64,000 nt of DNA from Escherichia coli (GTDB lineage: Bacteria; Pseudomonadota; Gammaproteobacteria; Enterobacterales; Enterobacteriaceae). Made by a program: the position numbers and the translations under genes. How positions within the stretch are numbered: position 1 is the stretch's first letter; every line of letters starts with the position of its first letter. Of the stretch, positions 13,620 through 16,906 are shown one piece after another. The notes under the pieces were generated by a model. It worked only from the letters and a program-made list of their open reading frames with translations. It searched no databases and was not told the DNA's origin. The stretch lies in assembly GCF_013122565.1 (NCBI RefSeq), contig NZ_CP053258.1; one strand, 5' to 3'.

Positions 13620-14399
13620 ATGGCATTTAAGATCTGGCAAATTGGTTTGCATTTACAACAGCAAGAAGCGGTAGCGGTTGCGATCGTGCGGGACGCAAAA
13701 GAATGCTTTTTGCAACGCTGGTGGCGGTTGCCGTTGGCGCACGACATTATCAAAGATGGGCGGATTGTTGATGCGCAGCGGCTGGCTAAAACGTTGTTAC
13801 CGTGGAGTCGCGAACTGCCGCAGCGCCATCACATCATGTTGGCGTTTCCCGCCAGTCGCACATTACAGCGGTCATTTCCGCGCCCGTCGATGTCCCTCGG
13901 TGAGCGGGAGCAAACGGCCTGGCTTTCCGGGACGATGGCCCGCGAGCTGGATATGGATCCGGACTCCCTGCGCTTCGATTACAGCGAAGACTCACTCAGT
14001 CCCGCCTATAACGTGACTGCCGCGCAAAGCAAAGAGCTGGCAACGCTGCTTACTCTGGCAGAAAGGTTGCGTGTTCATGTTAGTGCGATCACCCCGGATG
14101 CCAGTGCATTACAGCGATTCCTGCCTTTTTTACCTTCTCATCAGCAATGTCTGGCCTGGCGTGATAACGAACAGTGGCTGTGGGCGACGCGCTATCGCTG
14201 GGGGCGCAAACTGGCGGTGGGGATGACTAGCGCGAAGGAGCTGGCGGCAGCGTTATCCGTTGATCCCGAAAGCGTCGCGATATGTGGCGAAGGCGGATTT
14301 GATCCCTGGGAGGCCGTTTCTGTTCGTCAGCCGCCGTTACCGCCGCCAGGTGGAGACTTTGCCATCGCGCTGGGGCTGGCGCTTGGGAAGGCGTACTGA
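13620..14399 (+). CDS. hofM: Type IV pilus/DNA-uptake assembly protein HofM (PilM-like)
   Basis: ORF-track 268 aa; start moved to ATG at 13620 (MAFKIWQ...) preceded by AAGGAG RBS; divergent from mrcA. Confidence 0.8.
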   Translation: MAFKIWQIGLHLQQQEAVAVAIVRDAKECFLQRWWRLPLAHDIIKDGRIVDAQRLAKTLLPWSRELPQRHHIMLAFPASRTLQRSFPRPSMSLGEREQTAWLSGTMARELDMDPDSLRFDYSEDSLSPAYNVTAAQSKELATLLTLAERLRVHVSAITPDASALQRFLPFLPSHQQCLAWRDNEQWLWATRYRWGRKLAVGMTSAKELAAALSVDPESVAICGEGGFDPWEAVSVRQPPLPPPGGDFAIALGLALGKAY

Positions 14400-14938
14400 T
14401 GAACCCGCCAATTAATTTTTTGCCCTGGCGACAGCAACGCCGGACCGCTTTTCTTCGTTTCTGGTTGCTGATGTTCGTTGCGCCTCTGCTGCTGGCCGTC
14501 GGGATAACGCTAATACTGCGTCTGACAAGCAGCGCCGAAGCGCGCATAGACGCCGTTTTGCTTCAGGCGGAACAACAACTCGCCCGCAGCTTACAGATAA
14601 CGAAACCACGTTTGCTGGAGCAACAGCAGTTACGCGAACAGCGTTTGCAACGGCAGCGCCAGCGACAATTTACCCGCGACTGGCAATCTGAGCTGGAAGC
14701 ACTGGCGGCGCTTTTACCCGAGCACGCCTGGCTGACAACGATAAGCTGGCAGCAGGGAACGCTGGAGATCAAGGGGCTGACAACAAGCATTACCGCGTTA
14801 AACGCACTAGAAACGTCACTCCGCCAGGATGCTTCTTTTCATCTCAATCAGCGGGGGGCCACGCAGCAGGATGCGCAGGGACGCTGGCAATTTGAGTATC
14901 AGTTAACAAGGAAGGTTAGCGATGAACATGTTCTTTGA
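14399..14938 (+). CDS. hofN: HofN (PilN-like), single N-terminal TM segment
   Basis: ORF-track 179 aa; start overlaps the hofM stop (ATGA) indicating translational coupling. Confidence 0.8.
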   Translation: MNPPINFLPWRQQRRTAFLRFWLLMFVAPLLLAVGITLILRLTSSAEARIDAVLLQAEQQLARSLQITKPRLLEQQQLREQRLQRQRQRQFTRDWQSELEALAALLPEHAWLTTISWQQGTLEIKGLTTSITALNALETSLRQDASFHLNQRGATQQDAQGRWQFEYQLTRKVSDEHVL

Positions 14939-15362
14939 CTGGTGGTTCGCCACATCACCCCGCCTCCGCCAGTTTTGCTGGGCATTCTGGTTGCTGATGT
15001 TAGTTACGCTCATTTTTCTGTCATCGACACACCATGAAGAGCGCGACGCATTAATTCGACTACGGGCAAGTCATCACCAGCAGTGGGCCGCACTGTATCG
15101 CCTGGTAGACACCACTCCCTTCAGCGAGGAAAAAACGCTGCCCTTTTCGCCTCTGGATTTTCAGTTATCCGGCGCGCAACTGGTTTCCTGGCATCCATCC
15201 GCGCAGGGAGGTGAGTTGGCGTTGAAAACGCTGTGGGAAGCAGTGCCGTCGGCATTTACACGGCTGGCAGAGCGCAACGTCAGCGTGAGCCGTTTTTCGT
15301 TAAGCGTGGAAGGTGATGATCTTTTGTTCACGCTACAACTGGAGACGCCGCATGAGGGTTAA
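14922..15362 (+). CDS. hofO: HofO (PilO-like)
   Basis: ORF-track 146 aa; overlaps hofN end by 17 bp. Confidence 0.78.
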   Translation: MNMFFDWWFATSPRLRQFCWAFWLLMLVTLIFLSSTHHEERDALIRLRASHHQQWAALYRLVDTTPFSEEKTLPFSPLDFQLSGAQLVSWHPSAQGGELALKTLWEAVPSAFTRLAERNVSVSRFSLSVEGDDLLFTLQLETPHEG

Positions 15363-15756
15363 ACGCTGGTTGTTGGCAGGTATTGCATTGTGCCTTTTAA
15401 CCGGTATGCGTGACCCTTTTAAACCGCCGGAAGATCTATGCCGGATTAGCGAACTTAGCCAGTGGCGCTATCAGGGGATGGTAGGGCGAGGCGAGCGCAT
15501 CATCGGTGTAATAAAAGACGGGCAAAAGAAATGGCGACGGGTGCAGCAAAACGATGTGCTGGAAAACGGCTGGACAATTTTACAGCTGACGCCAGACGTA
15601 CTAACGCTGGGTACCGGGACAAACTGCGAACCGCCACAATGGTTGTGGCAACGGCAAGGAGATACAAATGAAGCAATGGATAGCCGCACTACTGTTGATG
15701 CTGATACCCGGCGTACAGGCGGCAAAGCCGCAAAAAGTGACGCTGATGGTGGATGA
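15352..15756 (+). CDS. hofP: HofP (PilP-like lipoprotein)
   Basis: Start moved to ATG at 15352 (MRVKRWLLAGIALCLLTG, signal-peptide-like) with GGAG upstream; overlaps the hofO end. Confidence 0.72.
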   Translation: MRVKRWLLAGIALCLLTGMRDPFKPPEDLCRISELSQWRYQGMVGRGERIIGVIKDGQKKWRRVQQNDVLENGWTILQLTPDVLTLGTGTNCEPPQWLWQRQGDTNEAMDSRTTVDADTRRTGGKAAKSDADGG

Positions 15757-16906
15757 CGTTCCGGTAGCTCAGGTGTTGCAGGCGCTGGCTGAACAGGAGA
15801 AGTTGAACCTGGTCGTGTCGCCAGACGTCAGCGGTACGGTGTCGTTACATCTAACAGATGTTCCCTGGAAGCAGGCACTACAAACTGTAGTGAAAAGCGC
15901 CGGACTGATAACGCGGCAGGAAGGCAACATTCTCTCAGTGCATTCCATTGCCTGGCAGAATAACAATATCGCCCGCCAGGAGGCGGAGCAGGCGCGGGCG
16001 CAGGCAAATCTGCCGCTGGAAAATCGCAGTATAACCCTGCAATACGCCGACGCGGGAGAACTGGCGAAAGCGGGGGAGAAGCTACTGAGTGCCAAAGGGA
16101 GTATGACCGTCGATAAACGCACCAATCGCCTTTTGCTACGAGATAACAAAACGGCGTTAAGCGCGCTTGAACAGTGGGTAGCGCAAATGGATCTGCCGGT
16201 CGGGCAGGTTGAGCTGTCGGCGCATATTGTCACCATTAATGAAAAAAGTTTGCGTGAGTTAGGCGTGAAATGGACGCTGGCCGATGCGCAACACGCTGGT
16301 GGCGTTGGGCAAGTCACCACGCTTGGTAGCGACCTCTCCGTAGCGACGGCGACAACGCATGTCGGTTTTAACATTGGGCGCATCAACGGACGTTTGCTGG
16401 ATCTTGAGCTTTCCGCGCTCGAACAAAAACAGCAGCTGGATATTATCGCCAGTCCGCGTCTGCTGGCCTCACATCTTCAGCCTGCCAGCATTAAACAGGG
16501 GAGCGAAATTCCATATCAGGTTTCCAGCGGGGAAAGTGGCGCGACGTCGGTGGAATTTAAAGAGGCCGTCCTGGGGATGGAGGTCACGCCCACGGTGTTA
16601 CAAAAAGGTCGCATCCGGCTGAAATTACACATCAGCCAGAACGTTCCGGGGCAGGTGCTACAGCAGGCCGATGGCGAAGTGCTGGCGATTGATAAGCAGG
16701 AGATCGAAACGCAGGTCGAGGTCAAAAGCGGAGAAACGTTGGCGCTGGGCGGCATTTTTACCCGTAAAAATAAATCGGGTCAGGATAGCGTACCGTTGCT
16801 TGGCGACATTCCCTGGTTCGGGCAATTATTTCGTCATGACGGAAAAGAAGATGAACGACGCGAGTTAGTGGTGTTTATCACGCCACGACTGGTTTCCAGT
16901 GAGTAA
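15668..16906 (+). CDS. hofQ: HofQ secretin (PilQ/ComE-like outer-membrane channel)
   Basis: ORF-track 412 aa with signal peptide and C-terminal secretin domain; overlaps the hofP end. Confidence 0.85.
   Translation: MKQWIAALLLMLIPGVQAAKPQKVTLMVDDVPVAQVLQALAEQEKLNLVVSPDVSGTVSLHLTDVPWKQALQTVVKSAGLITRQEGNILSVHSIAWQNNNIARQEAEQARAQANLPLENRSITLQYADAGELAKAGEKLLSAKGSMTVDKRTNRLLLRDNKTALSALEQWVAQMDLPVGQVELSAHIVTINEKSLRELGVKWTLADAQHAGGVGQVTTLGSDLSVATATTHVGFNIGRINGRLLDLELSALEQKQQLDIIASPRLLASHLQPASIKQGSEIPYQVSSGESGATSVEFKEAVLGMEVTPTVLQKGRIRLKLHISQNVPGQVLQQADGEVLAIDKQEIETQVEVKSGETLALGGIFTRKNKSGQDSVPLLGDIPWFGQLFRHDGKEDERRELVVFITPRLVSSE

Follow-up and report, generated by a model that had tools for sequence, protein, structure and literature searches.

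The closest described relatives of the hofMNOPQ operon of Escherichia coli, which occupies positions 13620-16906 of the 64,000-nucleotide stretch of contig NZ_CP053258.1 analysed here (the window), are the type IVa pilus PilMNOPQ clusters of Pseudomonas aeruginosa, Myxococcus xanthus and Thermus, the comABCDE(F) competence operon of Haemophilus influenzae, and the GspL-GspM-GspC-GspD proteins of the type II secretion system (T2SS). PilMNOPQ and hof share the gene order M-N-O-P-Q, a PilM fold, a PilN domain with an INLLP-type motif, the PilP HR fold and the PilQ secretin core. Both have a divergent PBP1a gene upstream. In the enterobacterial loci fetched for this work aroK-aroB lies downstream of hof, and the Pseudomonas pil locus presumably has the same surroundings, with aroK-aroB on that side as well.

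The H. influenzae com operon is orthologous to hofMNOPQ, with CRP-S sites that overlap the upstream PBP1a open reading frame (ORF) and a requirement for Sxy together with cAMP-CRP (PMC1635313). It differs in that enterobacteria have two predicted CRP-S sites rather than one, comF lies outside the E. coli operon, and E. coli is not naturally transformable under known conditions. Likeness to the T2SS is found in three of the proteins. The HofM model superposes on cytoplasmic GspL/EpsL (best target-normalised TM-score 0.62-0.67), HofO orthologues match T2SSM, and the HofP core fits the GspC HR domain (target-normalised TM-score 0.73, root-mean-square deviation 2.8 Å). However, HofM and HofN are separate proteins where GspL is a fusion, and the hof secretin is of PilQ rather than GspD type.

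The locus in the window is the chromosomal hofMNOPQ operon of E. coli, which is already known and annotated (Table 1). Positions 13300-17100 share 100% identity with E. coli A34, against 97.4-99.3% for the other E. coli listed (99.3% for the K-12 derivative MC4100), and the segment is matched in 5425 of 5426 complete E. coli genomes. The gene set, coordinates and start sites proposed by the first-pass annotation, made from the sequence alone, coincide exactly with the RefSeq coding sequences (CDS) of A34 and MC4100. The K-12 operon (formerly yrfD-yrfC-yrfB-yrfA-hofQ; b3395-b3391) is the same locus, with the same coordinates, product lengths and neighbours (mrcA, aroK and aroB), from which the window departs by strain-level polymorphism only; the RefSeq protein accessions of HofP and HofQ are identical in A34 and MC4100. 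Synteny of the E. coli type extends to Pantoea, where igaA, nudE and mrcA diverge from the five hof genes, which are followed by aroK, aroB and damX. In a more distant Logan contig the five genes again lie between a divergent mrcA and aroK, aroB and damX, with an autotransporter gene upstream of mrcA.

We hold it very probable that hofMNOPQ encodes the alignment subcomplex and the outer-membrane secretin of the E. coli type IVa pilus/DNA-uptake machine. The evidence assembled here comprises gene identity, homology and folds, the conservation of starts and overlaps, and purifying selection, and published work contributes the dependence on Sxy and CRP, the loss of Sxy-dependent DNA uptake in a hofQ mutant, and the pili that assemble when expression is forced. 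From these we infer the protein-protein contacts, the translational coupling and the single-transcript status of the operon. The cytoplasmic, actin-fold HofM would clamp the conserved INFLPWR N-terminus of HofN, which together with HofO would form the bitopic inner-membrane partners. Secreted HofP, through its PilP/GspC-HR beta domain, would bridge HofN/HofO to the N0 domain of HofQ, and HofQ would be the channel for the PpdD pilus and for incoming DNA. Genes elsewhere, ppdD-hofBC and ppdAB-ygdB-ppdC, would supply the pilin, ATPase, platform and minor pilins. The five hof genes would share a single transcript, driven by a promoter with CRP-S sites within the divergent mrcA.

The cluster ends in a secretin, as the first-pass annotation had stated. 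HofQ carries a signal peptide followed by STN/N0, Secretin_N and Secretin domains (Pfam Secretin, 4.3e-47). It scores above the NCBIfam cut-offs for HofQ (6.6e-258) and for PilQ (TIGR02515, 1.3e-134; 449 bits against a cut-off of 284) and below those for GspD (TIGR02517, 194 against 351) and SctC. The closest solved secretin is the competence-pilus PilQ of Vibrio cholerae (6W6M; 2.1e-74 over residues 23-409), with GspD at about 1e-24. HofQ is much shorter than PilQ (412 against 714-901 residues), an AMIN domain was not found in it by the Pfam scan, and its alignment to the PilQ proteins of P. aeruginosa and Neisseria begins after their N-terminal ~320 residues.

HofP shows weak sequence links to PilP (9 of 25 orthologues, best E-value 0.0028; 0.012 for the profile against M. 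xanthus PilP), and its top 13 Foldseek matches in the PDB are all PilP or GspC/PulC/LspC HR-domain structures. It has a signal peptide, an invariant RDPF motif within the conserved LTG-MRDPF sequence that follows the hydrophobic core, two invariant cysteines, a folded beta domain at residues ~30-102 and a tail at residues 106-134 that is predicted to be disordered. HofN matches the Pfam PilN family (PF05137) and has a transmembrane segment at residues 22-40, preceded by an (I/V)N(L/F)LPWR N-terminus that is conserved in all orthologues. A motif of this type in PilN is the PilM-binding motif in the T. thermophilus PilM-PilN complex (2YCH). In HofO, which has a transmembrane segment at residues 18-36, the sole Pfam match is the HofO EspM-like domain (PF25319, 1.4e-25), and T2SSM is matched by 5 of 25 orthologues.

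HofM is assigned through its family and its predicted structure. An exhaustive search of 1.84 billion representatives returned 157 relatives at E ≤ 0.001, the full-length ones being ~240-300 residues long, and 35 of the 56 aligned family members individually match Pfam PilM_2 (PF11104; best E-value 6.7e-16). The family profile matches four solved PilM sequences from M. xanthus, T. thermophilus and P. aeruginosa at 7.5e-10 to 5.5e-7, the structures including 3JC8, 2YCH and 5EOU. The AlphaFold (AF2) model of HofM (pLDDT 95, pTM 0.91) finds P. aeruginosa PilM (5EOY, 1.4e-13) as its best PDB match in Foldseek, and further matches are cytoplasmic GspL/EpsL, T. thermophilus PilM (query-normalised TM-score 0.71) and FtsA. 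By profile and model, HofM is a genuine but shortened PilM whose size and fold coverage resemble those of cytoplasmic GspL. The description of the cluster as PilMNOPQ-like thus holds through a PilQ-type HofQ, the PilN domain of HofN, the PilP/GspC-HR fold of HofP, and the profile and model of HofM.

The annotated starts at ATG 13620 and ATG 15352 are supported by sequence comparison across 80 orthologous loci from Enterobacteriaceae genomes, in each of which the five genes were located. The strength of a Shine-Dalgarno (SD) sequence was expressed as its duplex energy with the 3' end of 16S rRNA. The GGAG within the hofM SD is conserved in all aligned genera, and an ATG homologous to 13620 is found in all 70 loci whose alignment reaches residue 1. 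For hofP, ATG 15352 follows a GGAG at 15341-15344 with a 7-nt spacer (-6.4 kcal/mol), and its homologue occurs in 52 loci. For hofQ the start is secure, with an AAGGAG SD (-8.5 kcal/mol) and a canonical signal peptide, MKQWIAALLLMLIPGVQA. Each of the downstream hof genes has an SD of its own (-6.4 to -8.8 kcal/mol), and translation would initiate at ATG 13620, 14399, 14922, 15352 and 15668. The earlier claim that the internal ATGs at 13620 and 15352 have ribosome-binding sites was therefore borne out by SD strength, by RefSeq and by the comparative loci.

Neighbouring genes overlap at every junction, by 1 nt (M/N), 17 nt (N/O), 11 nt (O/P) and 89 nt (P/Q). The last three lengths are those given in the first-pass annotation. 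Its "ATGA at 14399" for hofM/hofN is right in that these letters begin there, but the junction ACTGATGAACC is not a classic 4-nt ATGA overlap: the hofM stop TGA (14397-14399) and the hofN ATG (14399-14401) share a single nucleotide in TGATG. Among 65 clean loci surveyed across genera, the M/N overlap is most commonly 4 nt (30 loci), followed by the 1-nt form (23 loci), while N/O measures 17 nt in 40 loci and O/P 11 nt in 54. The P/Q overlap is 89 nt in 30 loci, 92 nt in 10 and 86 nt in 8; it shortens to 77 nt in Pantoea and to 1 nt in the more distant contig. Since the overlaps are conserved in these 65 loci, and Pantoea and the distant contig keep the same order and flanks, the tight packing is ancestral. 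The conserved short stop/start overlaps probably couple translation and would thereby keep subunit stoichiometry, although every downstream gene also has its own SD.

Selection on the operon was estimated from the ratio of non-synonymous to synonymous substitution rates (dN/dS), for which the window was compared with Salmonella, two Citrobacter species and four further Escherichia lineages (Table 1). Of 73 loci from many genera, 69 keep every hof ORF intact, and in three of the four exceptions only the HofP tail is cut by an earlier stop. Identity to the E. coli proteins across genera (loci L003-L082) is 67-98% for HofQ and falls to 28-35% for HofN, HofO and HofP. The low dN/dS and the intact ORFs indicate that the cluster is maintained by selection even though it is silent in the laboratory.

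Published work accounts for this silence. The operon was earlier reported to be transcribed poorly or undetectably, and the yrfD (hofM) promoter lacks a canonical CRP site but has two predicted sites of the CRP-S type (Cameron and Redfield, PMC1635313). CRP binds a yrfD fragment weakly in an electrophoretic mobility shift assay (EMSA), and plasmid-borne Sxy induces yrfD 16-fold, as measured by quantitative PCR, in a strictly CRP- and cAMP-dependent manner (PMC1635313). The near silence of the operon in laboratory culture follows from a promoter that needs Sxy (TfoX) and cAMP-CRP at the same time. The first-pass annotation had called the operon largely silent under laboratory conditions with its inducing condition open. 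This stands for the natural sxy signal, as no physiological condition that activates chromosomal sxy had been identified by 2019 (PMC6728893), but the proximate regulators, Sxy and cAMP-CRP, have been published (PMC1635313).

The published EMSA primers map to 13344-13469 of the window, inside mrcA, and the two candidate CRP-S sites lie at either end of this fragment. CRP-S sites typically have C6 and G17 in place of T6 and A17. The second comA/yrfD site was reported at -246 from the start codon (PMC1635313); since 13620 - 246 = 13374, the candidate distal site is placed at the 22-mer 13352-13373, to which this coordinate points. The candidate proximal site has G6 on one half-site, as described for enterobacterial sites (PMC1635313), and coincides with the left edge of a conserved block discussed below. 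A consensus search for TGCGA-N6-TCGCA that tolerated up to 3 mismatches returned 295 matches where 339 were expected and did not discriminate, and the sites were placed from the published coordinates instead. A consensus scan found no convincing sigma-70 promoter on the + strand upstream of hofM, a result that is consistent with an activator-dependent promoter but uninformative.

Table 1. Features of the hofMNOPQ locus in window coordinates, with dN/dS for the five hof genes.
Feature	Position	Strand	Size	dN/dS	Description
mrcA	ends 13500	-			RefSeq annotation of A34 and MC4100, converted to window coordinates
Candidate distal CRP-S site ATCTGCATCGGAATTTGCAGGC	13352-13373	+			hofM (yrfD) promoter; inside mrcA; C6 and G17; one end of EMSA fragment
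Conserved mrcA-hofM divergent control region	13432-13585				mrcA codons 1-23, mrcA 5' region, mrcA-proximal hofM upstream region
Candidate proximal CRP-S site TAAATCGAGCCTGCTCCCAGCA	13433-13454				Reverse strand TGGGA-N6-TCGAT; mrcA codons 16-23; other end of EMSA fragment; position inferred
hofM Shine-Dalgarno AAGGAG	13605-13610	+			9-nt spacer to ATG 13620; duplex -9.3 kcal/mol
hofM	13620-14399	+	259 aa	0.09-0.22	RefSeq CDS; cytoplasmic, short, PilM-like actin-fold protein
hofN	14399-14938	+	179 aa	0.16-0.24	Bitopic inner-membrane PilN homologue; Pfam PilN 6.6e-10
hofO	14922-15362	+	146 aa	0.17-0.24	Bitopic inner-membrane protein in PilO position; GspM/EpsM-like periplasmic domain
hofP	15352-15756	+	134 aa	0.09-0.27	Secreted PilP-like protein; Pfam HofP 3.3e-80
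hofP/hofQ overlap	15668-15756	+	89 nt		HofQ signal-peptide codons read in hofP frame
hofQ	15668-16906	+	412 aa	0.02-0.07	Outer-membrane PilQ-type secretin
Weak terminator-like hairpin with T-rich tail	16910-16933	+			Directly after hofQ stop; consensus scan only
aroK	17307-17828				RefSeq annotation, converted
aroB	from 17885				RefSeq annotation, converted

Several observations weigh against the assignment to a pilus/DNA-uptake machine. E. coli HofM by itself falls below every curated PilM or T2SSL threshold in the Pfam and NCBIfam scans (T2SSL 0.0036, 17.2 bits, cut-off 25.5; TIGR01175 pilM 0.0036, 16.3 bits, cut-off 133). The profile-based check that the first-pass annotation had proposed for PilM-like homology thus gave a divided outcome, the single sequence staying sub-threshold while the family profile and the model match solved PilM. 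HofM is also ~95 residues shorter than PilM (259 against 354-395). Its phosphate-1 motif reads (D/H)-I-Q rather than the D-I-G of PilM, with Q in 49 and D in 30 of 56 members, a degeneracy which suggests that canonical nucleotide binding may have been lost and that HofM may differ from PilM in this respect. For HofO the Pfam matches are to GspM-type models, with no PilO match in Pfam and no meaningful PDB sequence match by profile. In HofP, a lipobox cysteine is not conserved in the signal-peptide region of 25 orthologues, unlike in PilP. Natural transformation of E. coli has never been detected without forced sxy expression (PMC3330819). Finally, the type strain of E. albertii, NBRC 107761 (locus L005, 3255-4089), has stops at hofO codon 70 and hofP codon 34, with hofM, hofN and hofQ intact; this lineage-specific decay indicates that the system is dispensable in some lineages.

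Two alternatives concern how the genes are read. The program-made ORF list opens hofM at GTG 13593 and hofP at GTG 15313, and initiation at these sites, or at ATG 15316 for hofP, would give longer proteins. The frames are indeed open from these codons, ATG 15316 has good raw pairing to the anti-SD (-8.7 kcal/mol), and a GTG upstream of hofM exists in Escherichia, Citrobacter and Salmonella. That the longer starts are the true ones is nonetheless very improbable. GTG 13593 has no SD complementarity (+0.4 kcal/mol), GTG 15313 reaches -3.9 kcal/mol, and the GGAAGG before ATG 15316 ends just 2 nt from the codon. An upstream in-frame start codon for hofM is lacking in 35 of 70 loci, 16 of which have a stop directly before the ATG. 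Upstream candidates for hofP are confined to Escherichia: 24 of the 52 loci have no upstream start at all, and in Citrobacter and Salmonella a stop lies at most 8 codons upstream with no start. An extended HofP would, moreover, bury its signal peptide behind 12-13 additional residues. The second alternative holds that the long hofP/hofQ overlap is itself selected, either for a functional HofP tail or for coupling hofQ to hofP translation. It is favoured by overlaps of 80-98 nt in 56 of 65 loci from many genera, by the observation that the hofP frame stays open to codon 29 only ~54% of the time when the observed HofQ amino acids are given random synonymous codons, and by a slightly lower diversity of hofQ third positions within the overlap than downstream (0.456 against 0.516). 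These 65 loci are phylogenetically related, however, and the 56 are not independent events. Over its last 29 codons hofP reads the signal-peptide codons of hofQ in an alternative frame, and beyond the C-E-P-x-x-W-x-W-x-R-x-G motif HofP is unconserved across genera apart from a terminal G-G, which the VDD codons of HofQ force. In the AlphaFold model of HofP, pLDDT is ~90 over residues 30-102 and drops to <50 over residues 108-134, a tail predicted to be disordered. The tail is absent in Leclercia (4-nt overlap) and shortened in the Phytobacter/Kosakonia group (38 nt) and some other genera (62-65 nt), the overlap shrinks to a single nucleotide in the distant contig, and hofQ has its own strong SD. 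Selection for the overlap is therefore unlikely. The 89-nt overlap is mostly a by-product of signal-peptide codon composition: the frame is often open because a stop arises only where a T-ending codon is followed by one for K, N, D, E, S or R, residues that are rare in signal peptides, and it would simply stay open over these stop-poor codons until the conserved VDD motif.

The other two alternatives concern what the operon does. It could be an evolutionary relic, the silent and decaying remnant of an ancestral competence system with no function in E. coli. Poor or undetectable transcription in laboratory culture (PMC1635313), the failure to detect transformation without forced sxy expression, the premature stops in E. 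albertii hofO and hofP, and the fast divergence of HofN, HofO and HofP (28-60% identity between genera, against 67-86% for HofQ) would fit such a history. This explanation is hardly credible given that three of the four loci with disrupted ORFs lose only the dispensable HofP tail, that the operon is present in all but one of the complete E. coli genomes, and that start codons, SD sites and overlap lengths are conserved. The measured dN/dS of 0.02-0.27 for every gene refutes it for Escherichia, Citrobacter and Salmonella. A function is also indicated by mutants: hofQ::kan abolishes Sxy-dependent uptake of chromosomal DNA and transformation (Sinha and Redfield, PMC3330819), and a hofQ mutant of UTI89 and a hofQ yheF double mutant of CFT073 are impaired in kidney colonisation. 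A more serious alternative accepts the machine as real and gives it piliation, adhesion or virulence as its main natural role, through PpdD/haemorrhagic coli pilus, rather than DNA uptake or the use of DNA as a nutrient. Forced co-expression of hofBC, hofMNOPQ, ppdAB-ygdB-ppdC and gspO yields extracellular PpdD pili that can be recovered as sheared pili (bioRxiv 10.1101/856302). Set against this are the place of the operon in the Sxy/CRP-S competence regulon common to H. influenzae and V. cholerae, the need for hofQ in Sxy-dependent uptake of chromosomal DNA, and the V. cholerae competence-pilus PilQ as the nearest solved secretin of a HofQ that has no AMIN domains. We regard this alternative as a doubtful but real possibility, and a pilus role and a DNA-uptake role are not mutually exclusive.

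A ~150-bp block (13432-13585), covering the first 23 codons of mrcA and most of the intergenic stretch towards hofM, is nearly invariant across ~70 enterobacterial loci. In 50 loci from distant genera its mean identity to E. coli is 0.92, with at least 95% identity at 76% of columns, and mrcA third-codon positions are 0.895 identical inside the block against 0.399 outside. Two palindromes lie within it, GGAAATTTCC (13502-13511) and GTTTATAAAC (13532-13541), and its core motifs are kept in Pantoea and the more distant contig. This conservation is not extraordinary, as in the same loci similar values are reached at the start of aroK (0.93 for third positions) and in its promoter (0.81-0.90). Given this control, the block can be taken as ordinary mrcA housekeeping control sequence, and it is probably, and most simply, a set of mrcA expression signals overlapping the hofM promoter.

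A 4.2-kb scan for RNA families found no Rfam family at threshold. The sole match, to asponA at 13346-13371 on the + strand, was sub-threshold (14.7 bits, gathering score 113, E = 0.33). It lies immediately to the left of the block, antisense to mrcA, where the candidate distal CRP-S site is also located, and most probably stems from the conserved coding sequence of PBP1a. RNA folding of the block was not significant on either strand (z = -0.5 on the + strand and -1.45 on the - strand). AsponA itself runs antisense to ponA, the P. aeruginosa orthologue of mrcA. Coming from the pilM side, this documented RNA crosses the 5' end of ponA and overlaps its promoter, and rapid amplification of cDNA ends has confirmed it (PMC4180829). 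It is conceivable, but improbable, that the block is a shared bidirectional switch in which a hofM leader fired by Sxy and cAMP-CRP would run antisense over the mrcA promoter and start codon and down-tune PBP1a, and that HofM is a variant of PilM that resembles GspL and works without nucleotide. Any antisense connection of this kind is speculative. If true, induction of the pilus machine would be coupled to a reduction in PBP1a, as an enterobacterial counterpart of AsponA.

The start of mrcA itself differs between sources. The ORF on the - strand opens at ATG 13524, and the RefSeq start is GTG 13500. Columns 13522-13524 are conserved at 0.38-0.72 in distant genera, whereas the GTG codon (13498-13500) never falls below 0.9, and the GTG start is favoured on this ground.

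On the other side of the operon, the number of terminator-like sites in the region was not above that in shuffled sequences in the consensus scan. The hofQ-aroK intergenic segment at 17007-17156 (~150 bp) has an aligned identity of 0.02-0.17 in 49 loci of other genera, with conserved flanks, and looks like an insertion or a replaced segment without counterpart in those more distant genera. Inside it is a terminator-like hairpin (17047-17065) followed by a T run. Farther away in the window, crp (49507-50139, - strand) lies ~33 kb from the operon that its product activates with Sxy, which we record as a curiosity only. Between envZ and pckA (1070-1742, - strand) are a RelE/ParE-family toxin gene (1425-1742, 105 aa) and a NadS-family gene (1070-1366, 98 aa), a pair that we take to be missing from this position in K-12.

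The locus itself adds nothing new, being an annotated operon with published regulators (Sxy and cAMP-CRP) and a published role (type IV pilus/DNA uptake, with DNA as a nutrient). The useful outcome of our analysis is that the annotated starts and the unusual overlaps are conserved across the Enterobacteriaceae, that the 89-nt overlap can be explained, and that purifying selection maintains an operon with no activity to speak of in laboratory culture.

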